DNA of 33,612 nt, the filler included, from an uncultured virus (IMG/VR IMGVR_UViG_2061766007_003009) (taxonomy: Duplodnaviria; Heunggongvirae; Uroviricota; Caudoviricetes). It is 3 parts of one record of this genome, joined end to end, with 100 filler letters (N's around TTAATTAATTAA, not from the genome) between each part and the next. Parts side by side here need not be neighbours in the genome. Positions count along the whole stretch, not along the records: positions 4,057 to 31,498 come from IMGVR_UViG_2061766007_003009; 2 more parts are not named here. One strand, written 5' to 3'. Of this stretch, positions 6,270 through 29,000 are shown piece after piece (position 1 is the first letter of the stretch; the number at the start of each line of letters is the position of its first letter). The notes beneath the pieces are model-generated. The model worked only from the letters and a program-made list of their open reading frames with translations. It was not told the DNA's origin and did not search any database. Made by a program: the position numbers and the translations under genes.

Positions 6270-6692
6270 ATGAGGATACCTGTAGACATTAGGGTTGGGG
6301 TGTACGTCGGGCTGGTACTGGGTTTCTCCCGGAAATTGCTGGGGAAGGTACTGAGGCCATCCGGTACGAGGCTGTTCCGGGAGGTTGTAGGGAAGGAGCG
6401 GAAGATATCCCTGTGTGTGGACCACGAGGGTCTGGGGTTGCGTGGGTACGTCGGGGGACCCTGGGTGATAGGGGACATGGGGGAGCTGTACCGTGCGATG
6501 GAGATAGCGGGAGCATGGGATGGCAGGCTGCCCGAGAACATGTCATTGGCGGTTGTGTGCGGGGACTGCAGTGACAGGATGGGGCTGTGTAGGTTCATGG
6601 AGCTGTCCCGTCTAGGGGAGAGGGAGTCTGCGGCACGTGCTTCGGTGGAGGGGTGCCGGGTGGACATAATGAAGATGCTTGGTGAGTTATGA
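6270..6692 (+). CDS. shared-leader family protein
   Basis: MRIPVDIRVGVYVGLVLGFSRKLLGKVLRPSG; body nearly identical to 7184-7603. Confidence 0.85.
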   Translation: MRIPVDIRVGVYVGLVLGFSRKLLGKVLRPSGTRLFREVVGKERKISLCVDHEGLGLRGYVGGPWVIGDMGELYRAMEIAGAWDGRLPENMSLAVVCGDCSDRMGLCRFMELSRLGERESAARASVEGCRVDIMKMLGEL

Positions 6693-6799
6693 GCATACCT
6701 GTGGACATTAGGATTGGGGTATATGCCGGAGTCGTGCTGGGTTTCTCCCGGAGGCTGTTGCGGAGGGTGCTGGTATCTCCCGGTAGGCACCCGTTGAGG
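6689..6799 (+). CDS. shared-leader family protein, 5' part only (gap)
   Basis: Manual translation MSIPVDIRIGVYAGVVLGFSRRLLRRVLVSPGRHPLR; ATGA overlap with the previous stop. Confidence 0.75.
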
Positions 6800-6855
6800 N
6801 NNNNNNNNNTGACATGGTATTTTCCTTTTTTGGTTTAGGTTTTGTATTGATATCA

Positions 6856-6867
6856 CAAATATAGCAA
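6856..6867 (-). promoter_or_regulatory. TTGCTATATTTG promoter (minus strand)
   Basis: CAAATATAGCAA; 6811-6867 duplicates the DUF6948 leader at 6177-6232. Confidence 0.7.
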
Positions 6868-6874
6868 AAATCTG

Positions 6875-7129
6875 CTAGCGGGAAGTTTCCGTGGTTTCCG
6901 GGGAGTTTTCGAGGATGCTGTCGCGGAAGTTGTCGAAGTCCTTGCGTTCGTATACGCGGTACGTGACATCATCGGAGGATGAGCCGCTAGTCTGGTAGAC
7001 TATACGGACCTCGTGTTTCGTTGGTGCGGTGGTAGATACGGTCTCCGTGTAACCGAACGAGGAGATTGCGTCCCTGCGGAAGAACTTCTCCCCCTGGAGA
7101 GTCCTTAGTTTGGCGAATTTGCTGTTCAT
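6875..7129 (-). CDS. hypothetical protein (84 aa, MNSKFAKLRTLQGEK...)
   Basis: ATG 5 nt after the minus-strand promoter motif; C-terminal part of ORF 6875..7339. Confidence 0.75.
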   Translation of the reverse strand: MNSKFAKLRTLQGEKFFRRDAISSFGYTETVSTTAPTKHEVRIVYQTSGSSSDDVTYRVYERKDFDNFRDSILENSPETTETSR

Positions 7130-7134
7130 ACCAT

Positions 7135-7175
7135 CAAATATAGCAAAAACTGTTGCGAATAAATTGCTATATTTG
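7135..7175. promoter_or_regulatory. back-to-back promoter pair
   Basis: CAAATATAGCAA at 7135-7146 and TTGCTATATTTG at 7164-7175. Confidence 0.8.
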
Positions 7176-7183
7176 TGGTCGAT

Positions 7184-7603
7184 ATGAGGATGCCTGCAGA
7201 TATTCGTGTTTCGGTGTATATTGGCGTGGTCCTGGGTTTCTCCCGGAGGCTTCTGAGGAAGGTATTGGTTCCATCCGGTACGAGGCTGTTCCGGGAGGTT
7301 GTAGGGAAGGAACGGAAGATATCCCTGTGTGTGGACCACGAGGGCCTGGGGTTGCGTGGGTACGTTGGTGGACCCTGGGTTATAAGGGGAATGGGAGAGC
7401 TGTACCGTGCGATGGAGATAGCTGGCGCATGGGAGGGCAGGCTGCCCGAGAATATGTCATTGGCGGTTGTGTGCGGGGACTGCAGTGATAAAATGGGCCT
7501 GTGCAGGTTCATGGAGCTTTCCCGTCTAGGGGATAGGGAGTCGGTGGCACGTGCTACGATTGAGGGGTGCCGGGTGGACATAATAAAGATGCTGGGAGAC
7601 TGA
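7184..7603 (+). CDS. shared-leader family protein
   Basis: MRMPADIRVSVYIGVVLGFSRRLLRKVLVPSG. Confidence 0.85.
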   Translation: MRMPADIRVSVYIGVVLGFSRRLLRKVLVPSGTRLFREVVGKERKISLCVDHEGLGLRGYVGGPWVIRGMGELYRAMEIAGAWEGRLPENMSLAVVCGDCSDKMGLCRFMELSRLGDRESVARATIEGCRVDIIKMLGD

Positions 7604-8016
7604 TGAGTATACCTGTGGACATTAGGGTTGGTGTATATGCCGGAGTCGTGCTGGGTTTCTCCCGGAAGCTTCTGAGTAAGGTACTGAGGCCTTCCCGGAA
7701 GGCTATTGTTGGTGACCTGGTGAGGGAGTACGAGGCCTCGCTGTGCCTGGAGTACCGTGGGACTGGGCTCCGGTGCCACGTTGCCGGTCCGTGGAAGGTG
7801 GATTGGGGCACATTGGCGAGATTGTGCTACATAGCGTCGGAATGGACTAAGAAGATGCCGGAGGGATTCGGGCTGTCGTTGCCCGGATGCGACTGTTCGG
7901 ACAGGATGGGCATTGGCGAGCTGTTGCATTGTGCCAAGGTAGGGCCGGATGTCAAGCGCGAGGTGCAGGACGCATTATACGATTGCCTGGCGGAGATTGG
8001 TGGACTCGGGATATGA
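7603..8016 (+). CDS. shared-leader family protein
   Basis: MSIPVDIRVGVYAGVVLGFSRKLLSKVLRPS; TGATG overlap. Confidence 0.85.
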   Translation: MSIPVDIRVGVYAGVVLGFSRKLLSKVLRPSRKAIVGDLVREYEASLCLEYRGTGLRCHVAGPWKVDWGTLARLCYIASEWTKKMPEGFGLSLPGCDCSDRMGIGELLHCAKVGPDVKREVQDALYDCLAEIGGLGI

Positions 8017-8402
8017 GGGCGGTGTACTTGGCGATAGTGTTGGGTTTCCTCCGTCGGTTAATGCGGAGGGTACTGTTACCTTCAGGTGGTCACCGGGAGT
8101 ATGTCGAGGGGGATTTCCTGGTTGTCGTAGTGAGGAGGGAATACTTCTACCAGGAGGAGAGGTACTGGGTTCTCGGTTTCGGCGGCCGGTGGCAGGTCGG
8201 GAAGATGCGTCGGGAGCTGCGGGAGCTTGGCTTAGGGAAGCTGCCCTACGGCTGGGTGATTGCTGTGGTGGAGAAGACTGCGGAGAACCGGGATATGCTT
8301 CGGTCGATGAAGTACTGGTCGATGATATCGGACCGGAATGTCAGGGATGCTGTCGAGGAAGTAGACGCCTGGTGGGACGCGAACCGAGGGAGGTTCATGT
8401 GA
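8013..8402 (+). CDS. shared-leader family protein
   Basis: MRAVYLAIVLGFLRRLMRRVLLPSG; ATGA overlap. Confidence 0.85.
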   Translation: MRAVYLAIVLGFLRRLMRRVLLPSGGHREYVEGDFLVVVVRREYFYQEERYWVLGFGGRWQVGKMRRELRELGLGKLPYGWVIAVVEKTAENRDMLRSMKYWSMISDRNVRDAVEEVDAWWDANRGRFM

Positions 8403-8764
8403 GGGCTGTCTATCTGGTCATAATACTGGGTTTCCTCCGGAGGCTGCTGCGGAGGGTACTGGTTCCTTCCGGTAAGTACCTGCATAGGCACGGGGGATAC
8501 GTGCTGTGCATGACGGTGAAGGAGGATGGCGTGCTGCACAACTACGGGATAGTGTGTTTCGGCGGGAATGCCCGTGCGAAGGATATCCTTGCTGATGTAT
8601 GCAGTGAATTTCATGGGGTGCTTCCCGGATACTGCATGCTGGATATAGTCGGCGGGAGGCTCGCGGACATGCGGACTTGGCGGGAGATAGGGGACGATTT
8701 CGCTAGGTATGCCGCATGCGAGATATCCAAGTGGTGGACAAGGAACGGGAGGAAGTACCTGTGA
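8399..8764 (+). CDS. shared-leader family protein
   Basis: GTG start, (M)RAVYLVIILGFLRRLLRRVLVPSG; GTGA overlap. Confidence 0.85.
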   Translation: MRAVYLVIILGFLRRLLRRVLVPSGKYLHRHGGYVLCMTVKEDGVLHNYGIVCFGGNARAKDILADVCSEFHGVLPGYCMLDIVGGRLADMRTWREIGDDFARYAACEISKWWTRNGRKYL

Positions 8765-9129
8765 GGGCCGTGTATGTACTGATTGTGCTAGGTTTCCTCC
8801 GGAGGCTGCTGCGGAGGGTACTGGTACCTGCCGGAAACATCCGGGTGGTGTGCCTGGAGATAGCTGGACGGGGTTACGGGTTGCGAGTGGCGGGTCCGTG
8901 GCGGGTGCCTGCCGGGAAGATGTGGGAGGCCGAGAGCATAGTTCGGGCATGGGCGGAGGAGCTCCCGGAGGGGTTCCGGTTCTGGCTCCGGGAGGTTCGT
9001 GACGGAGCGGGGCTCGGGAGGCTTGATGGGTTCATGGCTGATGTAGGCCTTGGGGCCAGGGAGCGGACCATGGTACGTGGCTCGGTTGCGAGCTGCGTAG
9101 GTAGCATGAAGAGTCTGACGGGCAGATAA
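8761..9129 (+). CDS. shared-leader family protein
   Basis: GTG start, (M)RAVYVLIVLGFLRRLLRRVLVPAG; GTGA overlap. Confidence 0.85.
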   Translation: MRAVYVLIVLGFLRRLLRRVLVPAGNIRVVCLEIAGRGYGLRVAGPWRVPAGKMWEAESIVRAWAEELPEGFRFWLREVRDGAGLGRLDGFMADVGLGARERTMVRGSVASCVGSMKSLTGR

Positions 9130-9168
9130 CCTGTCCGATATTGCCTCAAGGAGGAATAATCCCGGTAT

Positions 9169-9570
9169 CTACCGGTGCATCCACCGGTTCAGAACCTTGT
9201 TCGCCTCGGTGGGGTCGGTAGTTTCCCGACTCTGCCCGTGGGTGGCAGCGAAGTTCGGCACGTCGGGCCAGTGGTCTGGGTTCCCGGTGAAGTCGAATAC
9301 GGACTTGAACTTATAGTATGCGCTGTGCCCCTGCCAGTCGTCCAGGCACTCTATCTCAATCTGACACCGGACATGCTGCTTCAGGAGGAAGCGGAATTTT
9401 ACAGCCTGCTCTTTGGTTCGGAACGAGCCTACGATTGCGGACTCGTTCGCGAACGGGTATATTGCCAGATATCTCCGGTCGTTCTGCCGGCTGTCCGGGT
9501 TGAGTTTACTGGCGGTCTTCCTTGCGAAGTGCAGGAACATGGCGAGGTATGCTGCATTTTTCAGTTTCAT
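9169..9570 (-). CDS. shared-leader family protein
   Basis: MKLKNAAYLAMFLHFARKTASKLNP; ATGA overlap with 9567-9890. Confidence 0.8.
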   Translation of the reverse strand: MKLKNAAYLAMFLHFARKTASKLNPDSRQNDRRYLAIYPFANESAIVGSFRTKEQAVKFRFLLKQHVRCQIEIECLDDWQGHSAYYKFKSVFDFTGNPDHWPDVPNFAATHGQSRETTDPTEANKVLNRWMHR

Positions 9571-9890
9571 TCGTCGTACCTGAAGTCGTCGTGGGTTTCT
9601 ATCAGCACCAGGTGTCGTTCGTATTGCTGCTGAATCCTTTCCTCGATATCTTTCATGGCAAATTCCGTGCGTTCCTCTGCGCCTATAAGGTACGTACCTG
9701 TATGACTGACGTTGACGACGAACACGGAGTTGTACCCGTGGGCTTTCTCGAGGAGTTCCGCGGTATCTACAGTGGAGTTCCGGTAGACTTCCGCGCAGAT
9801 ACCGGAATGCTGCAGCCGCTCGAGCCACTGGAAGAAGTGGGTACGGGTCTTGCGCTCGAAGTTCGGCACTATCATATCGTATTCGTGCAT
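9567..9890 (-). CDS. hypothetical protein (107 aa)
   Basis: Translationally coupled to both neighbours. Confidence 0.75.
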   Translation of the reverse strand: MHEYDMIVPNFERKTRTHFFQWLERLQHSGICAEVYRNSTVDTAELLEKAHGYNSVFVVNVSHTGTYLIGAEERTEFAMKDIEERIQQQYERHLVLIETHDDFRYDE

Positions 9891-11104
9891 CAGTACTTCG
9901 CCGCCTCCATCGGGTTGAGGAAGCCGTGTATGCCGGAGGCGCAGTCTAGTTGGCTCATGTCGAACGGCTGCTTAGGCTTTGCCACCTTTCCTATCTTGTA
10001 ACAGAAACTGCTGTCGTACTTGGACCTGAGTCTTGCCAGCAGGGGGACTTTTGACTCCTCAATCGCTATTGCCCGGCCTTCCTTGTCGGTTACAATCATG
10101 TACATTTTCTGTGGAATTGCTGCAGAAACACGGATTTTGTGGGAGAACTCGTCGTATCTGGCTTGGGCATATGTCGGTACCTTCAGTTCGAGGATGACAT
10201 CGACAACATCGTCATTGCTGCATATGCCGAAACGGTCAAGTACCACCTTCTTGTATATTGTCGGCGAGCACATGTGGAAGCCGGCCGAGTTGTATGCCGC
10301 GGTGAGCGTTGGACATGACGGGTGCATTAAATGAGATTCGCACGCGGAGGTCTTTGCTGTGATTAGGTCTACCTTGGACATCTGGTCGACACTCAGGATG
10401 TACATCGTTGCCCGGTGGAACATTAGCGTGCTAATGTTCGTGTCCGATATCGACATCCGCTGCAGTGCAGAACGGGATACCGAGAATATGCCACGGATGC
10501 CAGATGCATCTATGTCTACGCTGGCCGTGTTCATCAGGTAGTCCATCTCGAGTACTGGTGTTTGCCGGTCTGGTAAGCCTAGAAAGCTGGACTTCTTCAA
10601 CGATACTGACGTAGAAATGTTCTCCAGGGATAGGTATTTTACTGACAGGTCGACTGCGGTGAATGACATAAGATTAAGGACGTGCATGTGGTTCAGACAG
10701 CAACCAATAATTTCAATTTCTTTCCCCCCGGCTACGAGAAGATTATTCCCGGTGCAGCAACGGAATAACAGTGTGTTATGATGCTCTGAATGTACCATTA
10801 TACGTGCCCACTGGCTGTCGACTGATAAGAATTCACAGTCAGTAAAAAACGCCCTGGTGTTGACTACGATGGAACCGAGGCACATGCGCTCCGGGATGAA
10901 CTTGCACTTGACGAATTCCACGTTACCCTGCTGCGGAAGAACAAGGTCGTATTCGTCTAAGAAGAACGTATACCCTTCCACCCGGAGGTCCCCGGATAGA
11001 CCCTTGGTGGCGTATTCTTCCAGGCTGAAGCCCTTGCCCACGATGATGTCGAGCACCTTCGGCTCCTTTACCTTCTTAATTGCTTGACGTTTTTTCTTTT
11101 TCAT
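9890..11104 (-). CDS. beta-solenoid-like N-terminus plus DUF5758-like C-terminal domain protein
   Basis: C-terminal IYKK...ILELKVP...SKYDSSFCYKIGK...FD...CASGIHGF...EAAKY matches the DUF5758 pattern; N-terminal periodic F/C/I-rich repeats. Confidence 0.7.
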   Translation of the reverse strand: MKKKKRQAIKKVKEPKVLDIIVGKGFSLEEYATKGLSGDLRVEGYTFFLDEYDLVLPQQGNVEFVKCKFIPERMCLGSIVVNTRAFFTDCEFLSVDSQWARIMVHSEHHNTLLFRCCTGNNLLVAGGKEIEIIGCCLNHMHVLNLMSFTAVDLSVKYLSLENISTSVSLKKSSFLGLPDRQTPVLEMDYLMNTASVDIDASGIRGIFSVSRSALQRMSISDTNISTLMFHRATMYILSVDQMSKVDLITAKTSACESHLMHPSCPTLTAAYNSAGFHMCSPTIYKKVVLDRFGICSNDDVVDVILELKVPTYAQARYDEFSHKIRVSAAIPQKMYMIVTDKEGRAIAIEESKVPLLARLRSKYDSSFCYKIGKVAKPKQPFDMSQLDCASGIHGFLNPMEAAKY

Positions 11105-11109
11105 GCCTA

Positions 11110-11147
11110 CAAATATAGCAAAAAATCACGATAAATTGCTATATTTG
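11110..11147. promoter_or_regulatory. back-to-back promoter pair
   Basis: CAAATATAGCAA at 11110-11121 and TTGCTATATTTG at 11136-11147; each 5 nt from an ATG. Confidence 0.85.
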
Positions 11148-11152
11148 GTGCA

Positions 11153-11572
11153 ATGAAGATTGCTGTGTACCTGTCCATAATCTTGTATTTTCTACGGCGG
11201 TTATTCCGTAGAGTTCTTGCTCCTGCAAGGAAGCTCCGGCGGAAGCCAGGCAGCAAGTACCCGTGCCACATCAACCTGTTCCAGATAGACAGCATGGGGA
11301 GGCTGGGGAGGTTCTACCATGTCGGGCCGTTACTGATGCTAAACGAGCGTACCCGGAGTGCCGCCGAGGACTACCTGGACAAGACCTACGGGAAGGTGTT
11401 TTCCGAATTGGGAGACTGGATTGTCGGAATAGGTACGGACGACAATGACGACGGGAGCTTCCAGGACCTTATCGAACAGGTACCGGAAGAGGACCGTGTA
11501 CTGTTCAGGCGGGAGTGCTGGAAAATGGTATATGTAGTAAAGAAAGCTATATCGGGGTTTGAGAATGCGTAG
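11153..11572 (+). CDS. shared-leader family protein
   Basis: MKIAVYLSIILYFLRRLFRRVLAPA. Confidence 0.85.
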   Translation: MKIAVYLSIILYFLRRLFRRVLAPARKLRRKPGSKYPCHINLFQIDSMGRLGRFYHVGPLLMLNERTRSAAEDYLDKTYGKVFSELGDWIVGIGTDDNDDGSFQDLIEQVPEEDRVLFRRECWKMVYVVKKAISGFENA

Positions 11573-11969
11573 GGCTGTGTATTGTGCGATGGTCATTTCG
11601 TTCCTCCGCAGGATTTTCCGGAAGACCCTGGCACCTGCCGGTGGAGACCGGGTGAAGTCCAGGCATGGCGACACTCCGCGGGAATGCGCGATGTTCCTGT
11701 ACAAGGTGAGCACGATTAACTACCGTATAGGAGGCGAGTTCATGGTCGGCGGAAGGACATCCTGGGATGTCAACGACATGCTGTGCGCCAGGTACGAGCA
11801 TAGGGCAAGGGCGTTAGGCTACCACATAGGTTTCTACTCTACCAGGAAGGATGACGTGGTGAGCGGCTATCCCAACGATATTACCTCCCCCAAGATGATG
11901 AATTTCCTGAACGAAGCATATGATTATGTGCTGAAGATATTGCCAAAGGACTGCAAGAGGAAATTTTGA
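11565..11969 (+). CDS. shared-leader family protein
   Basis: MRRAVYCAMVISFLRRIFRKTLAPAG. Confidence 0.85.
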   Translation: MRRAVYCAMVISFLRRIFRKTLAPAGGDRVKSRHGDTPRECAMFLYKVSTINYRIGGEFMVGGRTSWDVNDMLCARYEHRARALGYHIGFYSTRKDDVVSGYPNDITSPKMMNFLNEAYDYVLKILPKDCKRKF

Positions 11970-11971
11970 TA

Positions 11972-12340
11972 ATGAAGAACGCCATATACTTTGCCATATT
12001 CCTCTATTTCCTGCGGAAAGTGTTTCGCCGGCTTATCCCGGTAGACTCCAGTGCTCCCTGGATGGTTCTCTGGCTATTGAGGTATGATGACAACAATGGA
12101 CCCAGGGACCGGTACGTGAGGGTATACGAGGGGCATTCCATGCTGGCGGCATGCTGGGCCCGTGATACCATGATAAGGCAGGAGTGGGCGAAGGACTGCA
12201 TACTGCTGTGCAGGAAGGGACAGGAGCGGGACATACGGCAGCTCGATATCGAGGCTGACTTCAGCGAGATATACGACCTCATGGACGATACCTGCGCGGA
12301 AGAGCTTGCCGACATCCACAGGAGGGCCATGGAACTATGA
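11972..12340 (+). CDS. shared-leader family protein
   Basis: MKNAIYFAIFLYFLRKVFRRLIP. Confidence 0.85.
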   Translation: MKNAIYFAIFLYFLRKVFRRLIPVDSSAPWMVLWLLRYDDNNGPRDRYVRVYEGHSMLAACWARDTMIRQEWAKDCILLCRKGQERDIRQLDIEADFSEIYDLMDDTCAEELADIHRRAMEL

Positions 12341-12771
12341 GGAAGGCTATATACCTGTCTATATTCCTGTGGTTCGTCCGCAGGTTGCTGAGGAAGACCA
12401 AGCCCGCATCGAGAGAGGTAGTTTCCGGTTCTCCCGGTAATCCCCTTCCTCCTTCCGGAAAGTACGCGATGTTCCTAGTGGACCACTGCGAGGAACCTTA
12501 CTACTTCATGTACGGGAGCAAGTTCGAGGTACCCGATGATGCTGATTCAAGACTGAAACTTGATACCCTCCAGAGGCTAATCAAGTTCCACTACAGTGCT
12601 GCCCAGACACAGGTTGCCTTCAACGTAGAGATACTGCCGTCGGAAGGCCCGGAGGACTTCGTTGGAATGTATCCGGCCTGGAATGCACACTACGAGCAGT
12701 ACGACAAGATAATGAGTGCAGCATACGGGCACGTACTGGACATAATTCCATCGGGTTGGTTCCTTGACTAG
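12337..12771 (+). CDS. shared-leader family protein
   Basis: MRKAIYLSIFLWFVRRLLRKTKPA. Confidence 0.85.
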   Translation: MRKAIYLSIFLWFVRRLLRKTKPASREVVSGSPGNPLPPSGKYAMFLVDHCEEPYYFMYGSKFEVPDDADSRLKLDTLQRLIKFHYSAAQTQVAFNVEILPSEGPEDFVGMYPAWNAHYEQYDKIMSAAYGHVLDIIPSGWFLD

Positions 12772-13189
12772 GGCGGTGTACATGGCGATATTCATAGGTT
12801 TCCTCCGGAGGCTGCTCAGGAAGATGCTGGAACCTGCCGGTAGTTCCAAGGTGGACCCGTTCAGTCCGGGAGGGAAGACCTACAGAATGTACATGGTCGA
12901 TATCGACCTGCACGAGGTCTACTTCAGGTACGGGTTGGAAGTTGCCGTCCCGGCGGACGCCGAGTCGGTACGACGCTTTGTTGAAATAAGGAAATGGCTC
13001 GAGCAGAAGTACACCGACGCGGAAACCGGGATGCCGTTCTGTATTCTGCTTCTTAGTTCTTTCGTTTCGGATACGAGGTGGACAAGCTATCCCAGGTACA
13101 TGGACTACCGGAGTGTACTTGAACATGCCTGGGCCGACCTAACGACGGTAATACCGGGAGAGTGGTTGAGGTACCCGAATGGCAGGTAG
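12764..13189 (+). CDS. shared-leader family protein
   Basis: TTG start, (M)TRAVYMAIFIGFLRRLLRKMLEPAG. Confidence 0.8.
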   Translation: MTRAVYMAIFIGFLRRLLRKMLEPAGSSKVDPFSPGGKTYRMYMVDIDLHEVYFRYGLEVAVPADAESVRRFVEIRKWLEQKYTDAETGMPFCILLLSSFVSDTRWTSYPRYMDYRSVLEHAWADLTTVIPGEWLRYPNGR

Positions 13190-13583
13190 GGCATTTTACA
13201 TCGCGATTGTACTGGGTTTTCTCCGGAGGCTGCTCCGGAAGATGCTGGTACCTGCCGGTAAGAAACCGGGAGGTACCGGGGAGATGAAGGAGTCCGCTCT
13301 GTTCCTGGTGGACGGCATGGACTACTACGTGTTTCAGGGAACAGCCCACATGATGGACGACGAGACTGCGGACTGGCTATGCAGCGAATTGCAGGATGAA
13401 TGGCAGAATTATTGCAAAATGGTGATGCCCGGCCTGTCCATACATGTGTTGCATACCGGTCCGGTGGACGTTCCGTTAATTACACTGGCAGCCAAGCTCG
13501 ATTCTGCGGCAAGGGAAAGGCTGCATTGCCTGGTGAACGGTGCACGGAACACATACAACGACAAGTGGCGGCGTGGGAAATGA
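13179..13583 (+). CDS. shared-leader family protein
   Basis: MAGRAFYIAIVLGFLRRLLRKMLVPAG. Confidence 0.85.
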   Translation: MAGRAFYIAIVLGFLRRLLRKMLVPAGKKPGGTGEMKESALFLVDGMDYYVFQGTAHMMDDETADWLCSELQDEWQNYCKMVMPGLSIHVLHTGPVDVPLITLAAKLDSAARERLHCLVNGARNTYNDKWRRGK

Positions 13584-13900
13584 AATCTGCGGTGTACATA
13601 GCGATATTCCTGCACTTTGCCAGGAAGACCGTTAGGAAGATTTCCGAGAGCAAGGAGGAATGGGCGAGACGCCTAGTTGCCCGTATGGACGAAAACCGTG
13701 TAAAGATATACCGGGATATGTATGCCGACTCGTCCAAGTGCCTTGTAGGATACAAGGGATACTCGGACATGCCGTACAAGGTTACCTTCGCGCTGCGGCA
13801 CCTCTATACCGACGACGACAGGAAGAAACGCGATTCGATAAAAGATTCATACGAAATCGTCACGGACATTCTCAAAAACCACTACCCGAGCAACTGGTGA
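13580..13900 (+). CDS. shared-leader family protein
   Basis: MKSAVYIAIFLHFARKTVRKISE; ATGA overlap. Confidence 0.85.
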   Translation: MKSAVYIAIFLHFARKTVRKISESKEEWARRLVARMDENRVKIYRDMYADSSKCLVGYKGYSDMPYKVTFALRHLYTDDDRKKRDSIKDSYEIVTDILKNHYPSNW

Positions 13901-13904
13901 AACA

Positions 13905-14138
13905 ATGAAGAATGCTATCTACATACTGATATTCCTCCGGTTTATCCGGAGGACGCTCCGGCGGATAATACCGGCAGGCGGCCAGCGGTACATGTGCCTG
14001 GTCGAGCTGACTTCGGGAGACTCCTACTGCTTCGCCTCGTACGGCAGCATACTGAAGTCCCGGGAGGCGACCATGATGCTCCGGGATGCGATACGGAACG
14101 AAGGACTGTCGGACTTCGTCCTGGGAAGTCAACTGTAA
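13905..14138 (+). CDS. shared-leader family protein (short, 77 aa)
   Basis: MKNAIYILIFLRFIRRTLRRIIPAG. Confidence 0.8.
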   Translation: MKNAIYILIFLRFIRRTLRRIIPAGGQRYMCLVELTSGDSYCFASYGSILKSREATMMLRDAIRNEGLSDFVLGSQL

Positions 14139-15135: not shown

Positions 15136-15137
15136 GT

Positions 15138-16382: not shown

Positions 16383-16392
16383 GGAATAGGCT

Positions 16393-20235: not shown

Positions 20236-20875
20236 CCAGCCGAAATACCCGATATCCGACCAGGATATGCACGAACTTCTCACTAAGTACCCGTTCCTCC
20301 GGTATCTCCCGGAGGACCCCGGTAGTCCCGAAAATGATGCCGAACAGCTTGCAGTCAACTACTACAAGACGTGGGACGGGACCGGCTGGGAGGACCTGTG
20401 GAAGCACCGGTACCTTCCCCGGCTGTTTGCCATGTACGACACCTGGGATGAGGAGAAGCGGTCCGCCTTCCAGTTCACCGACGTGAAGTCCAAGTACGGT
20501 GGCATGCGCATCTACACATCGGTACCTACCGGGGAGGACTCCCTGGAGGGAATCGCGGAGAGTCTGTCCGAGTGGACATGCGAGCGCTGCGGGGAGGAAC
20601 CGAGAAACCGCGGGGGGTACCGGGAAATATGGACCACGAATGGCTGGATTATGAACCTGTGCAAGCACTGCATGCTCCGGGAGCTGATGGTGCATGGCGA
20701 TGACGGCAACACTATGACCAGGCAGGAAGCCGAGGGGAAGCTGGATAGCCTGCACCATGTGTGCGAAAAGGGCTTCGGGTATACTCGCTTCAGCCAGAAG
20801 GGGACCGTCACTGTCAGGTTCCGGGAGACACCGGACGGATGGCTCGCTCGTGACCGAGTGGAGGTCACCAAGTGA
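20228..20875 (+). CDS. conserved phage hypothetical protein (GW..L / K.KYG..R.Y / TCExCG family)
   Basis: GTGWEDLW, DVKSKYGGMRIY, SEWTCERCG and LCKHC Zn-binding-like motifs. Confidence 0.75.
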   Translation: MSNQPKYPISDQDMHELLTKYPFLRYLPEDPGSPENDAEQLAVNYYKTWDGTGWEDLWKHRYLPRLFAMYDTWDEEKRSAFQFTDVKSKYGGMRIYTSVPTGEDSLEGIAESLSEWTCERCGEEPRNRGGYREIWTTNGWIMNLCKHCMLRELMVHGDDGNTMTRQEAEGKLDSLHHVCEKGFGYTRFSQKGTVTVRFRETPDGWLARDRVEVTK

Positions 20876-21249
20876 GGTGGCTGTCCATATACGACGGAAT
20901 CTACATGGCGATAGCCATATGGTTCGCGCGAAAGCTTGTTGACAAGCTAGGGCTGGACACCGGCAGGCTGTGTGTTGTAATGGACTTTCCCGACACGCCA
21001 TACATCATTGTCGGAATGGCAAACCGTGGCAACACCCCGGGACAGAAGGAAGACCACATAAAACTCATTACCGAAGACGAGCTTGTCGAAACGGAACGGG
21101 ACACCATAACGCTAATGGAAGCCGCCTACAGGTATCCCGAAAAATGGAAAAGCGCATCGCAGGTCAGCACGTTCCAGGGGAACCGTAAGGCAGTCGGCGC
21201 GGCAATCACCAGGATACGCAGAAGAAAAGGAAAGAAGGTGCTCAAATGA
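20872..21249 (+). CDS. shared-leader family protein (divergent)
   Basis: GIYMAIAIWFARKLVDKLG; GTGA overlap. Confidence 0.75.
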   Translation: MRWLSIYDGIYMAIAIWFARKLVDKLGLDTGRLCVVMDFPDTPYIIVGMANRGNTPGQKEDHIKLITEDELVETERDTITLMEAAYRYPEKWKSASQVSTFQGNRKAVGAAITRIRRRKGKKVLK

Positions 21250-21688: not shown

Positions 21689-22380
21689 ATGAACAGGTAC
21701 TTGGCAATCAGCGTAAACGGCGGCGGCGCCCTCGGAATCGGCCCCCTGGCATTCATGTGTAGGCTCGAGCAGGACACCGGGAAGAAACTGGGAGACCTGG
21801 CAGTCGCGTTCGCCGGTACCTCCACGGGTGCAATCATCGCAGCCGGTCTGGACGAGGGTTACTCCGCACATGACCTGTTCGACATGTACAGGGACAATCT
21901 CCCGAAGATTTTCACGAAGTACCCGTGGTACAAGCGGATGACCGCCGGTTGCCCTACGTATGACAACAGTTACCTGACTAAGTTGCTCAAGTCGAAGTTC
22001 ACTGGAACGATGGAGCAGTTCAAGAAGCCCATCTTCATTCCTACCACCCATACGAACGGCAAGAGCGTCGAGAAGGTGTGGGACCTTGGTGACAAGGGAG
22101 TGGATAAGTGGTTCGCGGTGCTCACCAGTACGGCCGCGCCTACCTACTTCGACTGCGTGCAGAAGGACGGGGAGAACTACGTTGATGGTGGAATGTGGTC
22201 GAACGACGCCATAGCCGTGCTCAATGCTGGTCTCAAGCGTTCCGCCTACGGAAAGAGCCTGCGCATCCTATCGTTCAATACCGGCATGGACACGCCTAAT
22301 ACCCTGAAGGGCAACCAGACGCTTATCGGGTGGGCCGAGTACATATTCAAGGAATGGGTGGCCAGGGCTGGAAAGAGCAA
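21689..22380 (+). CDS. patatin-like phospholipase (3' end in gap)
   Basis: NGGGALG oxyanion loop, GTSTG nucleophile, TAAPTYF, DGG catalytic Asp. Confidence 0.9.
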
Positions 22381-22463
22381 NNNNNNNNNNAATCCAACGA
22401 CTTCTGCGACATAATGATTTCTGCCAAAGACACATTCAAGATGCTTACAAAGGAACTCAAGTA

Positions 22464-22817
22464 ATGGCTCTACCACTTGGCGAATATCCCTGTCACCACC
22501 TGGACCACGGCCCGGACACCGTAGAGGTGCACCGGGAGGACTACGAAATTGCCCTTGACGCCAAGGAGAAACTCAAGGTAGCCACCGGTACCATCCGGAA
22601 GCTCCGTATCGCATATGCGAAGTCACAAAAGAGGTTCTGGCAGTTCATCATTGACGACGAGGAGCAGAATCCCGACTTTCCCTTCCCGGACGCGTACCTC
22701 ATTGACGGCACCGGGATATTCCGGAAGGACTTCAAGGAAACCACCCGCACCTACCGGTGTGCAACCGACTGGTACTGGGCATGGGACCTGGTATTACACC
22801 TGCTGGAGGCGCGATGA
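22464..22817 (+). CDS. hypothetical protein, near-identical to 23702-24055
   Basis: MALPLGEYPCHHLDHGPD... Confidence 0.75.
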   Translation: MALPLGEYPCHHLDHGPDTVEVHREDYEIALDAKEKLKVATGTIRKLRIAYAKSQKRFWQFIIDDEEQNPDFPFPDAYLIDGTGIFRKDFKETTRTYRCATDWYWAWDLVLHLLEAR

Positions 22818-23327
22818 AGGACCTGGACAACTACCTGGACGACTGGATGTATGTCATCGCAGAAATACTGGGCGCCAAGTGTCCCGACGGATACGAGTGC
22901 TTCTGGAAGAAGTACTTTGATAGGCACTGCATTGACCGGGATTAGCAATGCTCCTAGTAGAGATAACAGCCGGTGCATCGGAAGCGGACTACCGGNNNNN
23001 NNNNNAGTCAGTGCCGACCTCGGCTCGGAGAACGTGGCGTCTGCATCACCGTCGTGCAGCAAGAAGCTGGACATGGACGACACCTCGTCGAAGAACCTCG
23101 ACCGAGTAATCGGAATTTGGACTGACTACTACGAGGCCAACCGGGAATACTTCAAGAAGTTCGTCCTTGGCAACTAGAGATTTAAGCACAGGTCTCTAGT
23201 TGAGGTGGACCGGATTATAGGAATTATCACATCCCGGTCGCCCATGCGGCACTTGATTCGGTCGAAACCGAGCGGATTGCTGTCGTTGGACTCGGCCAGC
23301 ACCCGGGGCTTCCGGTATTTCATTTTC

Positions 23328-23705
23328 TCAGCGAACAAGCCGGGATTTCTGGATAATGCACTGTACTTGGATGCTTCGCACTCCCTGGTAGGCATTCGGC
23401 ATTTCGCCATAATGCGCCTTGCCATCTGAAGTACAATAGTACCGTATACTGCAACCCGTATACTTCTCCACAGTTCCATTTCGTTCTTCTCCAGCAATAG
23501 GATACCAGACATTCTGTTCCAGTTTAATCCGTTCGATGTTATCCTTGTACAACTGTAAGTTCCTATCGTATGCTTCGCGAAACTCATTGCTGTTGATATA
23601 GTCGTATATGGTAGTGGTAGGAGTCCTAGCCACATTGACCTTCCGGAGTATCTTCCGGAGGCCCCACAGGAATATACCGGCATATGCCGCGGTTCGTATC
23701 CTCAT
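23328..23705 (-). CDS. shared-leader family protein (divergent)
   Basis: MRIRTAAYAGIFLWGLRKILRKV; ATGA overlap. Confidence 0.7.
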   Translation of the reverse strand: MRIRTAAYAGIFLWGLRKILRKVNVARTPTTTIYDYINSNEFREAYDRNLQLYKDNIERIKLEQNVWYPIAGEERNGTVEKYTGCSIRYYCTSDGKAHYGEMPNAYQGVRSIQVQCIIQKSRLVR

Positions 23706-24055
23706 TTCGATTCCAACAGGTGGATTACCAGGTCCCATACCCAGTACCAGTCTGTTGCACACCGGTAGATGCGGGTGGTTTCCTTGAAGTCCTTCTGGAA
23801 TATCCCGTAGCCGTCGATAAGGTACGCGTCCGGGAAGGGAAAGCCGGGATTCTGCTCCTCGTTGTCAATGATGTACTGCCAGAACCTCTTTTGTGACTTC
23901 GCGTATGCAATCCGGAGCTTCCGGATGGTACCGGTAGCTACCTTGAGTTTCTCCTTGGCGTCAAGGGCAATTTCATAGTCCTCCCGGTGCACCTCTACGG
24001 TGTCCGGGCCGTGGTCCAGGTGGTGACAGGGGTAATCTCCGAGCGGTAGAGCCAT
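23702..24055 (-). CDS. hypothetical protein
   Basis: 117-aa ORF coupled to neighbours; copy at 22464. Confidence 0.8.
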   Translation of the reverse strand: MALPLGDYPCHHLDHGPDTVEVHREDYEIALDAKEKLKVATGTIRKLRIAYAKSQKRFWQYIIDNEEQNPGFPFPDAYLIDGYGIFQKDFKETTRIYRCATDWYWVWDLVIHLLESK

Positions 24056-24471
24056 TACTTCATTTCCTTAGTTAGCATCTTGAAGGTGTCTTTGGCAGAA
24101 ATCATTATGTCGCAGAAGTCGTTGGATGCTGCGTAGTCTAGGTTCTCGACCAGTTCGTTCGGGTCCTCGGTGGGCATGTCGGCATACTGTAGTACGGCGA
24201 ACTCGCGCTTTTCATGGAGAAGCGAGAAGAACCTGTCCATGTACTTGTAGGTTAGTGCGCTCTCTATCTGGAACGCATCGCGTGCCGTGCAGCGGCATGA
24301 GAGGTACATTGGCCAGTACTTGCTTCCGTCGGACAGGTAGAGGAAGTACGGGCGGGACTTGCCGTCGTGCCCGTTGAACATCTTCTTGGCCGGCACCAGC
24401 AGCTTCCGGGTTATCCGGCGGGCGGCATGGAGGAGGATGGCGGTGTATGCAGCAGCCTTCAGTGACGCCAT
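24055..24471 (-). CDS. shared-leader family protein
   Basis: MASLKAAAYTAILLHAARRITRKLLVPA. Confidence 0.8.
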   Translation of the reverse strand: MASLKAAAYTAILLHAARRITRKLLVPAKKMFNGHDGKSRPYFLYLSDGSKYWPMYLSCRCTARDAFQIESALTYKYMDRFFSLLHEKREFAVLQYADMPTEDPNELVENLDYAASNDFCDIMISAKDTFKMLTKEMK

Positions 24472-25246: not shown

Positions 25247-25250
25247 GCCC

Positions 25251-25298
25251 CAAATATAGCAAAAAATCGGACGGAGAAACGGGAAATTGCTATATTTG
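25251..25298. promoter_or_regulatory. back-to-back promoter pair
   Basis: CAAATATAGCAA at 25251-25262 and TTGCTATATTTG at 25287-25298. Confidence 0.8.
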
Positions 25299-25336
25299 GT
25301 CGAGTAGATATCCCGCGCGAGACATAGTTTAAGAGT

Positions 25337-26374
25337 ATGCCAGAGAAACAGCTTTATCCCATCGAATATCTTGGGAAGACATACAATACGACAATACACA
25401 GGGACCTTACTGACGAGGAGTACGAGGGAATAGTCGCCGGCATCCGCGCGAGACCCTCCCGGGAGGAAGTCCTCGCCCAGCTGAAGAGCGTCGCCGCCGG
25501 AGGCACCCGCATGGACAAGGTGTACTCATACTACTTCAAGGAGTGCGCCTACAAGACATGCCTCGTGTACAACAACTGGTCAATCGACGAGGCGCTCCGG
25601 CACAAGCCTCTCATGGAGTTCTTCGCCGGGAAGAGCGCCGACAACAAGAAGGTGTATCCAGACACGATGCCGCTGTGGAAGAAGGTCGAGACGGCGTTCA
25701 GGCTATGCGGGTTCAAGACCTGCTCCAAGCCGAGCAACTTCCCCATGAAGGCAATCGACGGCCTGCTAGAAGAATACTGCCCTGCAGGCGGGAACTACCT
25801 CGACTACTCCTGCGGATGGGGCGTAAGGCTGCTTTCCGCCCTGAAGCACGGGGTGAACTACTTCGGCACCGACCCCAACTACGAGCTCGTACCGAAGCTC
25901 CGGGAGATGGCGGTGGACTACCGGGAGGCTACCGGTGGCGCACCGGTGGTGGACGTGAGATGCACCGGGAGCGAGCACCTGCAGGAGGACTGGGTCGGCC
26001 GGATGGACCTGGCGTTCACGAGCCCGCCGTACTTCAACCTGGAGGACTACCGTATCGGCGACCAGTCGTACAAGGAGGGCACTGAATACGATTCCTGGAA
26101 GGAGAACTACGTCGAGCCTACCGTGAGGAACGGCAGAGATTACCTGAAGCCCGGCGGCATATTCGCGTTCAACATAAAGAACAACTTCAAGTACGTGAAG
26201 CACGACCTGGAGGGCGACTGGGCCAGGATAGCCGAGGAGGCCGGGCTGGAATATATCGGGGAAGTGCCGCTGGAGAACATCACGAGGGTATCGGGGCACC
26301 GCCACGAGGACTCCGGGAATACCATGCTGAAGCACGACAACGACGAGGTAATCCGCCTGTACCGCAAAGCATAA
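25337..26374 (+). CDS. DNA amino-methyltransferase (N4-C/N6-A type)
   Basis: SAM-binding LDYSCGWGVRL precedes catalytic FTSPPYFNLEDY; LKPGG. Confidence 0.85.
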   Translation: MPEKQLYPIEYLGKTYNTTIHRDLTDEEYEGIVAGIRARPSREEVLAQLKSVAAGGTRMDKVYSYYFKECAYKTCLVYNNWSIDEALRHKPLMEFFAGKSADNKKVYPDTMPLWKKVETAFRLCGFKTCSKPSNFPMKAIDGLLEEYCPAGGNYLDYSCGWGVRLLSALKHGVNYFGTDPNYELVPKLREMAVDYREATGGAPVVDVRCTGSEHLQEDWVGRMDLAFTSPPYFNLEDYRIGDQSYKEGTEYDSWKENYVEPTVRNGRDYLKPGGIFAFNIKNNFKYVKHDLEGDWARIAEEAGLEYIGEVPLENITRVSGHRHEDSGNTMLKHDNDEVIRLYRKA

Positions 26375-26408
26375 ACTGCGGTCGGCAACGAAAAACAAGG
26401 GGTTTGAG

Positions 26409-27704
26409 ATGGAGGGGAAACTTCCTAACAAGTGGCTGAACTGCGCGATTCCGGGGGTGGCACTGACCACCTGCATCGGGTCGGTATACTGTTGGAGCCA
26501 GTTCTCGAGGGAACTCATGGAGACCTTCGGGACGACAAGGTTCCAGACGGACATCGGCTTCACTCTAATCATATTCTTCCTCGGCATGTGCGCGGCCATA
26601 TTCGGTAGCACAATCGAGAAGAATCCGAGGACGGGGGCGTGGTTGTCCACAATCGTGTTCATCACCGGCTTCCTGATGCTCGGGGTGGCCGTCTATACCA
26701 AGTGCCTACCGGCATTCTACATAGCGACTGCGGTGATAGGGGCAGGTACCGGCATCGGGTACGTAACCCCGGTGAAGACCCTGATGGCCTTCTTCGCCGA
26801 CCACAAGGGGATGGCCTCCGGTCTCGCAATCACCGGGTTCGGCCTCGCGAAGTTCGTCGCCTCCCCGGTAATCGAGTGGCTGCTCGCCACCGTGCCGCTC
26901 TACGGGGTGTTCTTCTCGCTCGGCGCGATATACGCCGCCGTGATGGTGGCATCCTCCCTTCTGCTCAGGAAGTACCCCATGATGGAGAAGGAATACGGGA
27001 ACCCGGACTTCCGGTACTCCCTGGTGTTCAAGCGTAAGGAATGGTGGGCCATATGGTTCATGTTCATGACAAATATCAGTTGTGGCCTCGCCATCATCTC
27101 CCAGGAGAAGGGACTGCTTCTCGGACTTGGAATAGCCTCGGTGGCCGTCATCCTCTCCGGGACGGCACTGGCAAACTCCGGGGGACGCATCGGCTTTTCT
27201 ACCCTGTCCGACAGGATAGGTAGGAAGGCGAGCTACCACTTCGTGTGCTCGTTCGGAATCCTCGGCGCCTTGTTCTGCGTGACCGGGAGCCCGGCATTGA
27301 CCGTCATCGGCATTCTGCTCTGCGAGGCTGCATACGGCGGAAACTTCAGCGTACTGCCCAGCCTGCTCGCCAAGCGCTTCGGGATGTCAAGCGCCTCCCG
27401 GATTCACTCGATGACCCTGACCGGGTGGAGCATCGGCNNNNNNNNNNTATTGACCGTTATCGGCATCCTGCTCTGCGAGGCTGCATACGGCGGAAACTTC
27501 AGCGTACTGCCCAGCTTGCTAGCCAAGCGATTCGGGATGTCAAGCGCCTCCCGGATTCACTCCATGACGCTCACCGGATGGAGCGTGGGAGGCATCTTCG
27601 GGCCGGTGCTGGCGAACACCTTTACGGGCACCACGCTGTATCTGGTCCTTGCCGTTCTCTACTTTATCGCCTTCACGGTGATGGAAATTAACGTGAAGAA
27701 GTAG
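26409..27704 (+). CDS. MFS transporter, OFA (oxalate/formate antiporter)-like; internal assembly duplication
   Basis: CIGSVYCWS, GTGIGYVTPVKTL..FFADHKGMASGLAITGFG, GRIGFSTLSDRIGRK, YGGNFS; many hydrophobic helices. Confidence 0.88.
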   Translation: MEGKLPNKWLNCAIPGVALTTCIGSVYCWSQFSRELMETFGTTRFQTDIGFTLIIFFLGMCAAIFGSTIEKNPRTGAWLSTIVFITGFLMLGVAVYTKCLPAFYIATAVIGAGTGIGYVTPVKTLMAFFADHKGMASGLAITGFGLAKFVASPVIEWLLATVPLYGVFFSLGAIYAAVMVASSLLLRKYPMMEKEYGNPDFRYSLVFKRKEWWAIWFMFMTNISCGLAIISQEKGLLLGLGIASVAVILSGTALANSGGRIGFSTLSDRIGRKASYHFVCSFGILGALFCVTGSPALTVIGILLCEAAYGGNFSVLPSLLAKRFGMSSASRIHSMTLTGWSIGXXXXLTVIGILLCEAAYGGNFSVLPSLLAKRFGMSSASRIHSMTLTGWSVGGIFGPVLANTFTGTTLYLVLAVLYFIAFTVMEINVKK

Positions 27705-27720
27705 AATTCCTCGGCAAAAT

Positions 27721-27732
27721 TTGCTATATTTG
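27721..27732 (+). promoter_or_regulatory. TTGCTATATTTG promoter
   Basis: Exact motif just after the MFS stop, ahead of the next plus-strand cluster. Confidence 0.7.
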
Positions 27733-27871
27733 GGGACGGCAATCGTCCCTTTTCTTTTAGGAATTGTTGATGTACGAATATCTTACCAACNNNNNNNNNN
27801 NNNNNNNNNNNNNNNNNNNNNNNNNNNNNNNNNNNNNNNNNNNNNNNNNNNNNNNNNNNNNNNNNNNNNNN

Positions 27872-28250
27872 GCTCGCGATAGAGGCCAGGAACAAGAAGC
27901 TGAGGAAGGACCTAACCGACGCCTACCGGTTCATCAAGAAGGCAATTTACCACGCAAGCACCGGTAATGCCGGGTGTAAGCTCACCGTGTGCATATGGAA
28001 ATGGTGCAAGTACTATTTCAATCAGTATGACGCGGCAACCTGCAAGGAACTGTTCGTCGACCGTCTGGTAAGCAGGCTCCTGGACGAGGGGTTCAGCGCG
28101 GAGTACCTCCCTAACGGGGATAGCGGGGTTAAGTCCAAGGAACCTTCCCTTAAGGTCATGTGGGGAGAGTCGAGCGACGACCTGGAACGGATGGTGGAGG
28201 AAGAACTGGAGAAACCGGGAGAAACCGGGAAGGAAGGTGCGACATGGTGA
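27872..28250 (+). CDS. hypothetical protein, 5' end in gap
   Basis: Frame open from the gap: LAIEARNKKLRKDLTDAYRFIKKAIYHAS...CIWKW... Confidence 0.6.
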
Positions 28251-28396
28251 AGTCGTTGATGAACGCAGTGTATGTAGCAATCGGGTTGGCGTTCGCCAGG
28301 AAGATTTACGAGAAGGCATGCAGTGACCCGTACGGAGACTTGACGCGAGCTGCCAGGGCATATCATGGCAAGTCATTAACCATGCTGGTAGGCGAG
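28244..28396 (+). CDS. shared-leader family protein, 5' part (gap)
   Basis: MVKSLMNAVYVAIGLAFARKIYEK. Confidence 0.7.
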
Positions 28397-28562
28397 NNNN
28401 NNNNNNNNNNNNNNNNNNNNNNNNNNNNNNNATAATAGAGTTGAGTCGCCAAATAAGCACGCAGAGCCTCATGCCAGATATCCCAACGTTCCCGAGTACA
28501 CCGAAACTGGGTAATTCGTGGAAGCCGTTCCCGTGGTCTCCTATGGACAAGGAACTCTAGTC

Positions 28563-29000
28563 ATGGAACGTGCAGCATATTTCCTGATTTTCGTGTACTT
28601 CCTGCGCAAGATGTTCAGGAAGCTTCTGTGCAGGCCAAGGCTACCGGTCCGCAGGTGCACTTCCCGGGATACCCCTAGCGGATATGCCCGCCTTGTCATA
28701 TCCGGGAACGACGTCGACCTGTGTTCAAACTTCTGCGTGAAGACTCCAAGGGGCTTCCACAGCAACGGACTGGAAGAGCATGTGGAGAAGGAACTCGCAC
28801 TGATGTTCAGCGCGAGGATAATGTCCGCCAGCGGCGGCGAATACTGCAGCAAGTCTGGCGGTGGAATCATAGTCTACCGTGGACGGCTTGCCCCAAGGGA
28901 CCTGGAGTTCGACGAGACCGGCGATGGTACCGGGGTACCCGGGGAGCTCCGGGGGCTACTGGCGTCGGCAACAGAAGAATTCGTTAGACTGATGAGGTAA
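28563..29000 (+). CDS. shared-leader family protein
   Basis: MERAAYFLIFVYFLRKMFRKLLCRP. Confidence 0.8.
   Translation: MERAAYFLIFVYFLRKMFRKLLCRPRLPVRRCTSRDTPSGYARLVISGNDVDLCSNFCVKTPRGFHSNGLEEHVEKELALMFSARIMSASGGEYCSKSGGGIIVYRGRLAPRDLEFDETGDGTGVPGELRGLLASATEEFVRLMR

Follow-up and report, generated by a model that had tools for sequence, protein, structure and literature searches.

The window analysed here is a 33,612-nt scaffolded metagenomic piece of the uncultured virus IMGVR_UViG_2061766007_003009, with 29 runs of N (2,087 N in total). It very probably encodes 22 paralogues of one undescribed small-protein family, about 100-145 aa long and with a three-part architecture. Part one, here called the leader, is a ~20-residue N-terminal helix that opens with small-x-Tyr, continues through 11-12 uncharged residues and ends in an Arg/Lys-rich amphipathic half. 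In part two, a Pro at Tyr+16 to +19 breaks the helix and a disordered, variable linker comes after it; part three is a compact alpha/beta domain, here called the body. The original prediction, made from this DNA alone, had proposed that the leader is a shared address tag delivering a diversified set of small effector or anti-defence domains. We read the data instead as a single fast-diverging paralogue family with a separable leader module. The family is probably confined to a clade of uncultivated phage-like elements, known from contigs of up to 431 kb in animal gut metagenomes and with Bacteroidota as hosts.

A shared leader on many small proteins

A regular expression anchored on the leader Tyr and Arg/Lys residues had 22 matches in a six-frame translation of the window, as against a mean of 0.24 matches and a largest count of 2 in 50 shuffled windows. 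A leader-only hidden Markov model (HMM) of 25 columns, built from 58 external representatives and from no window sequence, recovered the same 22 sites at 23-48 bits, and had no match in 20 shuffled windows. All 21 open reading frame (ORF) starts listed in the original prediction carry the motif by both methods, and the additional site is ORF 23174-23476 on the minus strand. This 22nd member is doubtful because it overlaps the conserved 3' end of 23328-23705 by ~149 nt in another frame; it has an orthologue elsewhere (P0060). These results confirm, and slightly extend, the observation of a shared leader on many small proteins. Alignments took in 20 of the 22 members, leaving out 6689 and 28244, the bodies of which are interrupted by N runs.

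Relatives were found only in metagenomic data. A word-indexed search of 5.8 billion proteins returned 32, all metagenomic, unnamed and without Pfam domains, on contigs that reach 431,172 nt. An exhaustive HMM search of 1.84 billion representatives (E up to 0.001) returned 64 clusters at 50% identity; the representatives of 63 are 57-168 aa long. In 62 of these 63, the distance from the first residue to the leader Tyr is 4-14 residues; in the exception, P0053, a first leader copy is near the N-terminus and the best match of the profile is a second, internal copy at 39-84. P0060 and P0066 are called with longer N-termini. The 64th cluster, P0050 (1,678 aa), was considered as a long leader-bearing protein and rejected, as only body columns 54-105 were matched and the leader is absent. 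A restricted search among proteins of 248-2000 aa, which is weak evidence, found no leader. Two JGI loci, L001 and L002, are syntenic with the window at 20-29 kb and have 8 leader matches each. Public runs containing the array come from 13 studies and carry the label bovine gut or gut metagenome; two of these rows may be the source sample.

We compared 78 Tyr-anchored sequences, comprising 20 window members and 58 representatives at 50% identity. Tyr at position 0 and Arg at +9 are present in 78/78, and in 22/22 window copies, in agreement with the invariance first described within the window, and position -2 is Ala, Gly or Ser in 78/78. Elsewhere in the leader we found Ile at +3 (66/78), Leu or Ile at +5 (77/78), Phe at +7 (71/78), Arg or Lys at +10 (74/78), Arg at +13 (56/78) and Lys or Arg at +14 (77/78). 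Position +2 is A, S, G or T in 67/78, and position +6 is Gly in 28/78 and His, Trp or Tyr in 36/78. A Pro follows at Tyr+16 to +19 in 66/78, and a P-[SAT]-G turn after the leader in 21/78.

The codons behind these residues vary. Information over codon positions 1/2/3 amounts to 2.0/2.0/1.0 bits at Tyr and 1.2/2.0/0.1 bits at Ile+3; the window uses CGG, CGT, CGC, CGA and AGG for Arg+9, and TAC and TAT for Tyr; and over all 231 pairs of paralogue leaders the proportion of synonymous differences (pS) is 0.64 and that of nonsynonymous differences (pN) 0.37. Since the third codon position is nearly free and the information sits at the first and second, the constraint acts on the peptide and not on DNA or RNA, as had been proposed from the synonymous variation.

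The family is, on database searches, undescribed. None of 20 members scored above the Pfam cut-off, and sub-threshold hits to DUF4632 (20.4 bits, cut-off 27) and Gp23 (17.9 bits, cut-off 24.4) were rejected as chance. PHROGs matched 0/10 members, NCBIfam 0/20 and PADLOC 0/20, and a profile search of PDB sequences gave nothing at E up to 1. Pattern scans of IMG/VR with two single proteins or with leader alignment A2 found no related locus; GTDB species genomes gave nothing with leader alignment A2 (pattern scan) nor with the IS607-type recombinase of the window; and phage GenBank records matched neither the DNA of 6000-14200 nor, by tblastn, a 404-aa neighbour. A full-text literature search (huge-phage paralogues, rumen jumbo phages and megaphages, leader peptide strings; supplements outside the search) found no description of it. 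The original prediction had likewise not recognised the family.

Diverged bodies and turnover of the arrays

Stripped of their leaders, 108 bodies fell into 41 BLAST clusters (E below 0.001). Profile-profile comparison of the 11 clusters with at least 3 members, using hhalign, gave 0/55 pairs above 7.7% probability, and the two top pairs align solely the first strand past the linker. We modelled two clusters without a sequence link, A and C, with AlphaFold, each from its own alignment. The cluster A model (7603-8016; 22 sequences) has a mean predicted local distance difference test score (pLDDT) of 77. It comprises a helix at 7-27 (pLDDT about 50-58), a stretch without secondary structure at 28-42, of which residues 28-39 are below pLDDT 50, and a body (pLDDT 85-94) with strands at 43-51 and 56-66, a helix at 68-83, a strand at 89-92 and helices at 104-110 and 115-133. 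The cluster C model (28563-29000; 9 sequences, mean pLDDT 76) has a helix at 3-22, a weak linker, strands at 41-46 and 53-60, a helix at 70-90, a strand at 102-105 and a helix at 127-144.

The order of elements is identical in the two models, a strand-strand-helix-strand-helix domain, and this pattern of hydrophobic strands and helices recurs when clusters D, H and E are aligned jointly. The VIA top-50 lists for the two models have 7 chains in common. Because two clusters unrelated by BLAST and hhalign share one fold plan, we read the set as one rapidly diverging paralogue family, and we infer from these 2 of 41 clusters that the bodies would be one small alpha/beta domain diverged past sequence recognition. 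In both models, the leader is a low-confidence helix set off from the globular domain by a disordered linker, which suggests a separate module and not a helix of the body domain. The separability of the leader put forward in the original prediction agrees with this. A picture of one tag delivering unrelated effector domains is not supported, since all 63 true matches are 57-168 aa, no larger or different leader-bearing protein was found, and clusters A and C have the same predicted fold. The contrary picture, a plain paralogue expansion with the leader as an integral helix of a shared domain, is favoured as to the single family and not supported as to the helix, which is modelled apart from the body. 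Foldseek of the models against PDB and BFVD found nothing at E of 0.001 or better, and ESM Atlas gave no model and no usable match for two members; the predicted fold has no convincing match among solved or viral predicted structures.

In 11/11 orthologue clusters, conservation is higher in the leader (Tyr-2 to Tyr+16) than in the remainder of the protein, with identities of 0.73 vs 0.34 in cluster A and 0.94 vs 0.72 in cluster E, and leaders of different clusters are still 46% identical on average (182 pairs). Measured against orthologues in L002 (3 genes, uncorrected proportions), pN/pS is 0.22 for the leader and 0.34 for the rest, consistent with the earlier description of a leader more conserved than its bodies. 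The value of 0.34 indicates that the bodies are maintained proteins and not decaying copies.

Contigs from four other runs (X3, X4, X6 and X10) were scanned for rearrangements at 80% likeness, a low-stringency comparison in which assembly effects are possible. This showed leader-to-leader joints at 6317->7232 and 8040->6738, a unit deletion at 12398->12850 and a unit duplication at 13181->12768. At 8473->8760 (307 nt between) and 12395->12730 (343 nt between), the leader is alignable and the body is replaced or diverged at similar size. These contigs hint at turnover within the arrays, the breakpoints falling at the edge of the leader.

Three of the joints (6317->7232, 8040->6738 and 12398->12850) lie inside or just past leader-coding segments, as would be expected if the conserved 5' ends were a nucleic-acid feature, such as a recombination site, a translational signal or an RNA structure, with conservation of the peptide as a by-product. 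We regard this as very improbable. It is largely ruled out by the codon pattern, in which information sits at positions 1 and 2, Arg+9 has five codons and leader pS is high; Rfam and tRNA scans of the window were also empty. The position of the joints suggests that leaders serve as homology for unequal exchange.

Possible functions of the leader

The leader does not resemble an ordinary export signal. An uncharged small-x-small region of the Sec (signal peptidase I) type right after the hydrophobic run was present in 0/78 sequences (median net charge there +5), a lipobox [LVI][ASTVI][GAS]C within the first 40 residues in 0/78, and a twin-arginine (Tat) motif in 0/78, the leader arginines coming after the hydrophobic run. 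The run without charged residues is 11 or 12 residues long in 96/108 sequences (median 11) and at most 15 in any; a classical single-pass anchor would have about 18 or more consecutive, mostly apolar residues. Net charge is +1 ahead of Tyr and +5 over the 15 residues from Arg+9. These values match the original account of a hydrophobic stretch of ~11 residues ahead of a basic helix, with no lipobox.

Strong amphipathicity marks the C-terminal half of the leader (hydrophobic moment, muH, 0.69-0.89). The N-terminal half has a weak moment in the same direction, at a median angle of 53-58 degrees to that of the C-terminal half. When the N-terminal half was shuffled the median lay near 90 degrees, and 0/200 shuffles had a median below 61. 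The polar side of this half carries small residues (Ala, Ser, Gly).

We tentatively propose, with somewhat less than even confidence, that the leader is a membrane-association module at the cytoplasmic face. The short uncharged run, the net charges of its flanks (+1, then +5) and the aligned moments of the two halves favour this. On this view the helix would sit within the cytoplasmic face of the inner membrane of the host, or rest obliquely against it. Its N-terminal half and bulky face would be buried, its four basic residues would reach the phospholipid head groups, and the Pro break and flexible tether would hold the diversified cytoplasmic domains at the membrane. The charge bias is the reason for placing the body in the cytoplasm.

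Two known kinds of membrane helix may be compared with this proposal. Microsomal cytochrome P450 anchors consist of a signal-anchor, a basic cluster and a Pro-rich hinge. The leader has a hydrophobic stretch, a basic cluster, a Pro/Gly break and a predicted cytoplasmic domain in the same order; however, its uncharged run is about half the length of a membrane-spanning helix and its insertion energy is favourable in none of the sequences tested (see below). The targeting sequences of MinD and FtsA and the anchor helices of viral replication proteins lie in the membrane plane, are amphipathic throughout and tolerate substitution. The leader shares with these a basic amphipathic helix, one continuous hydrophobic face and a flexible linker to a soluble domain, but its N-terminal half is almost wholly hydrophobic and two of its residues are invariant.

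Several observations weigh against parts of this overall picture. Only 11/108 sequences reach a Kyte-Doolittle value of at least 1.6 over a 19-residue window, and 0/108 have a summed insertion energy at or below 0, both on crude scales; the leader is therefore probably not a normal transmembrane segment, a conclusion already drawn in the original prediction, as was its distinctness from Sec, Tat and lipoprotein signals. Lipid-binding helices usually tolerate substitution, and in the leader Tyr and Arg are invariant and Ala-2, Ile+3 and Phe+7 nearly so. Because these conserved residues lie on two helix faces, a specific protein partner fits better. The shared fold is an agreement of secondary-structure order in 2/41 clusters with shallow alignments (22 and 9 sequences), and the remaining four models of cluster C have mean pLDDT values of 43-62. 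A promoter-like motif and a few PHROG matches are the grounds for proposing a host and for calling the element phage-like; no capsid or terminase gene was seen.

Strict invariance of Tyr and Arg, together with conservation on two faces, keeps both docking or packaging and self-association as serious rivals to membrane association. As a docking or address helix, the leader would bind one partner encoded by the element or the host, such as a prohead scaffold or portal that would package ejected proteins, a chaperone or a hub; we judge this unlikely, at a probability clearly below that of the membrane proposal. Its structural separation from the body in the two models fits such a role, as does the retention of leader DNA at 80% likeness or more beside replaced or more diverged bodies (8473->8760 and 12395->12730) in other samples. 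A fully hydrophobic run of 11-12 residues would, however, be unusual in a soluble docking peptide, and the searches above found the leader on no protein of other size or kind. Body charge is mixed (42 acidic and 26 basic of 77), which argues against uniformly basic, DNA-embedded virion proteins. Capsid, portal, terminase, protease or scaffold genes were not seen in the 33.6-kb window or in the 20-kb locus L002.

The T4 capsid targeting sequence (CTS) is ~10 residues long, and the prohead protease cleaves it off after a Glu. Like the present set, T4 CTS proteins are small, highly diverse phage proteins from variable loci that have a short, conserved leader at the N-terminus. They differ in that the leader here is a ~20-residue hydrophobic and Arg-rich helix without a conserved Glu, and that the bodies here seem to have one common fold. 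At every position from Tyr+17 to Tyr+25, Glu is present in at most 10/78 sequences, and no other conserved cleavage motif follows the leader. As precedent for docking, T-even internal proteins are described (PMC3012670) as a highly diverse set of defence proteins having just the CTS in common. By analogy, this set is the closest to ours in logic.

A stronger version, which we also hold to be rather improbable, is that the leader would be a true address for one dedicated receptor (a packaging adaptor, membrane insertase or hub), and the arrays a library of interchangeable small domains with one destination.

The set also recalls precursors of bacteriocins and of ribosomally synthesized and post-translationally modified peptides (RiPPs), in which numerous paralogues in tandem likewise combine a conserved leader with a hypervariable remaining part. 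Such precursors have double-glycine leaders, with a GG (or GA/GS) cleavage motif at the leader end, and short core peptides, and are served by a maturation enzyme or a peptidase-ABC exporter. The P-[SAT]-G turn in 21/78 is a further likeness. In contrast, the bodies here appear to be folded domains of ~100 residues, GG occurs within Tyr+16 to +26 in just 8/78, and no peptidase-exporter or RiPP modifying enzyme was found among 22 neighbouring window ORFs. The scarcity of GG likewise counts against a cleaved docking leader.

Self-association of the leader is less likely still. The small-xxx-small pattern is a helix-packing rule, and a face formed by Ala or Gly at -2, a small residue at +2 and often Gly at +6 could bundle paralogues, possibly in the membrane, giving mixed oligomers or membrane-perturbing assemblies. 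The full conservation of a small residue at -2, the frequent small residue at +2, the Gly at +6 in some members and the cluster A pattern G-x-x-x-G-x-x-x-G fit this idea, and the helix is common to all paralogues, many of them predicted to be co-transcribed in arrays. The presence of His, Trp or Tyr at +6 in 36/78, however, means that such a zipper is not general. Of these readings, association with the membrane is the most likely, and is held as tentative.

Genomic setting and significance

Members lie in tight arrays, often with overlaps of 4-11 nt, at 6270-9129 (+) and 11153-14138 (+), and others are scattered. GC skew is unusually high, at 0.31-0.35, over the cluster A/F array (6001-9000) and 0.05-0.12 over the second array.

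The first array opens with 6270..6692 (+; 140 aa, cluster A, 33.5 bits), the first gene past a promoter-like motif at 6250-6261. It is followed by 6689..6799 (+; 38.0 bits), with an intact leader and a body interrupted by the N run 6800-6809, and by two further cluster A members, 7184..7603 (+; 139 aa, 87% identity to the 6270 copy, motif 7164-7175 upstream) and 7603..8016 (+; 137 aa), one of the two modelled members. Two cluster F members come next: 8013..8402 (+; 129 aa, 40.7 bits), overlapped by its neighbours by 4 nt, and 8399..8764 (+; 121 aa, found by both regular expression and HMM), the body of which is replaced or diverged in the run X10 contig. The array closes with 8761..9129 (+; 122 aa, cluster A, 41.8 bits). 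On the other strand, 9169..9570 (-; 133 aa, 36.6 bits) ends a minus-strand unit begun at motif 11110-11121.

The second, eight-gene array is opened by 11153..11572 (+; 139 aa), with motif 11136-11147 upstream, and continues with 11565..11969 (+; 134 aa, 41.5 bits) and 11972..12340 (+; 122 aa, cluster B, regular expression and HMM). Cluster D supplies 12337..12771 (+; 144 aa, regular expression and HMM), the body of which is replaced or diverged in the run X6 contig, and 12764..13189 (+; 141 aa), which has the top leader score of 48.1 bits. A public protein record starts the 12764-13189 gene at an internal Met (residue 7), losing the conserved Ala-x-Tyr. TTG or GTG may be true starts in the family, in which case gene callers may systematically truncate the leader. 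The last three members are 13179..13583 (+; 134 aa, cluster H, regular expression and HMM), 13580..13900 (+; 106 aa, cluster I, 43.3 bits) and 13905..14138 (+; 77 aa). The relatives of this last protein are longer (P0047, 136 aa; P0061, 133 aa), and it is possibly a truncation.

The scattered members comprise 20872..21249 (+; 125 aa, 31.4 bits), with a divergent leader (Asp at +13); the possible 22nd member 23174..23476 (-; 30.6 bits), absent from the earlier list; 23328..23705 (-; 125 aa, cluster K); 24055..24471 (-; 138 aa, cluster E), with orthologues in L001 and L002; 28244..28396 (+; 24.2 bits), with a body interrupted by the N run 28397-28431; and 28563..29000 (+; 145 aa, cluster C), the other modelled member. 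The cluster K member is flanked by the two arms (22392-22817 and 23702-24127, 92% complementary) of an inverted repeat of 426 nt, each arm with a 117-aa ORF. The arms enclose an 884-nt segment that also holds the doubtful 23174-23476, and 22392-24127 may be an invertible or inverted-duplicated segment.

The 12-mer TTGCTATATTTG has 13 exact copies in the window, and at up to 2 mismatches 15 matches compared with 1.45 expected. Exact matches form divergent pairs on both strands at 6221-6261, 7135-7175, 11110-11147, 18181-18218 and 25251-25298 (pair starts 7135/7164, 11110/11136, 18181/18207 and 25251/25287 for the last four), and single copies are at 6856, 27721 and 31401. The pairs stand back-to-back, 14-24 nt apart, and 5-9 nt upstream of the first ATG of the arrays. 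The 12-mer includes TAnnTTTG, and the same motif is found in L001 and L002. TAnnTTTG is given as the Bacteroides -7 promoter consensus (PMC4747536). The 12-mer looks like a uniform Bacteroidota -7 type promoter giving leaderless or nearly leaderless mRNAs, and it is this promoter-like motif that points to a host in the Bacteroidota.

Neighbouring genes include an IS607-type serine recombinase with TnpB and, under the same motif, accessory genes for a patatin-like lipase or phospholipase (21689-22414), an N6/N4 DNA methylase (25337-26374), an MFS transporter (26409-27704) and a DUF4422 protein (31970-32602); this accessory set is syntenic in L002. Of 17 neighbours, four match PHROGs of unknown function. 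The methylase is 33-34% identical to proteins of Twort-like Staphylococcus phages and has relatives in 25 phage records, 12 of them from Staphylococcus phages and 6 from Bacteroides phages. The element is likely a 'huge phage'. Since the arrays follow promoter-like motifs along with a methylase and other accessory genes, our guess is that the members act in host takeover, superinfection exclusion or counter-defence.

An IS607-like unit (14404-17772) interrupts the region directly past the eight-gene array. It codes for a serine recombinase with a MerR-HTH (14404-15135), a 414-aa product that matches GIY-YIG weakly (15138-16382) and TnpB (16393-17772). Its GC content is 0.40-0.47 vs about 0.55, and L002 has a different TnpB elsewhere. 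Direct repeats of 123 nt (97%) at 5742-5998 and of 141 nt (92%) at 27296-27589 flank the 10-N runs 5865-5874 and 27438-27447 and resemble scaffold ends that overlap, or strain variants that the assembler has joined; one of them artificially lengthens the MFS transporter ORF. A tandem duplicate at 4491-5066 and 5098-5655 (-), an ORF of 160-166 aa with 93-95% identity and no family match, forms a second, smaller paralogue set. A 110-nt tandem repeat at 3564-3780 (2 copies, 93% matches) lies in a GC-rich stretch without convincing ORFs.

Expansion of one small protein family in a big phage genome has a parallel. Bacillus phage G has about 35 zinc-ribbon copies, described as a lineage-specific expansion in a jumbo phage (PMC7824862). 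The high copy number per genome is alike; unlike the zinc ribbons, the present family has a different predicted fold and no known domain, and its conservation is concentrated in a terminal helix.

Huge phages hold large blocks of unannotated small genes, and here about 8 kb of a 33.6-kb region is very probably a single hidden family, recognisable solely by a 20-residue helix. With its modular anatomy, a ready HMM and invariant residues open to mutation, this 'ORFan' block becomes a testable system. If the leader is merely a conserved structural helix, the family would still show strikingly how far a domain can diverge under purifying selection. If it is an address for a dedicated receptor, new bodies would arise and strains would exchange them through recombination where the conserved leader ends, a 'one address, many cargoes' phage system of a kind not described for Bacteroidota phages. 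Either a membrane or a packaging address would help to explain how accessory proteins, of which large Bacteroidota phages have many, are positioned, and would provide a portable tag for engineering.

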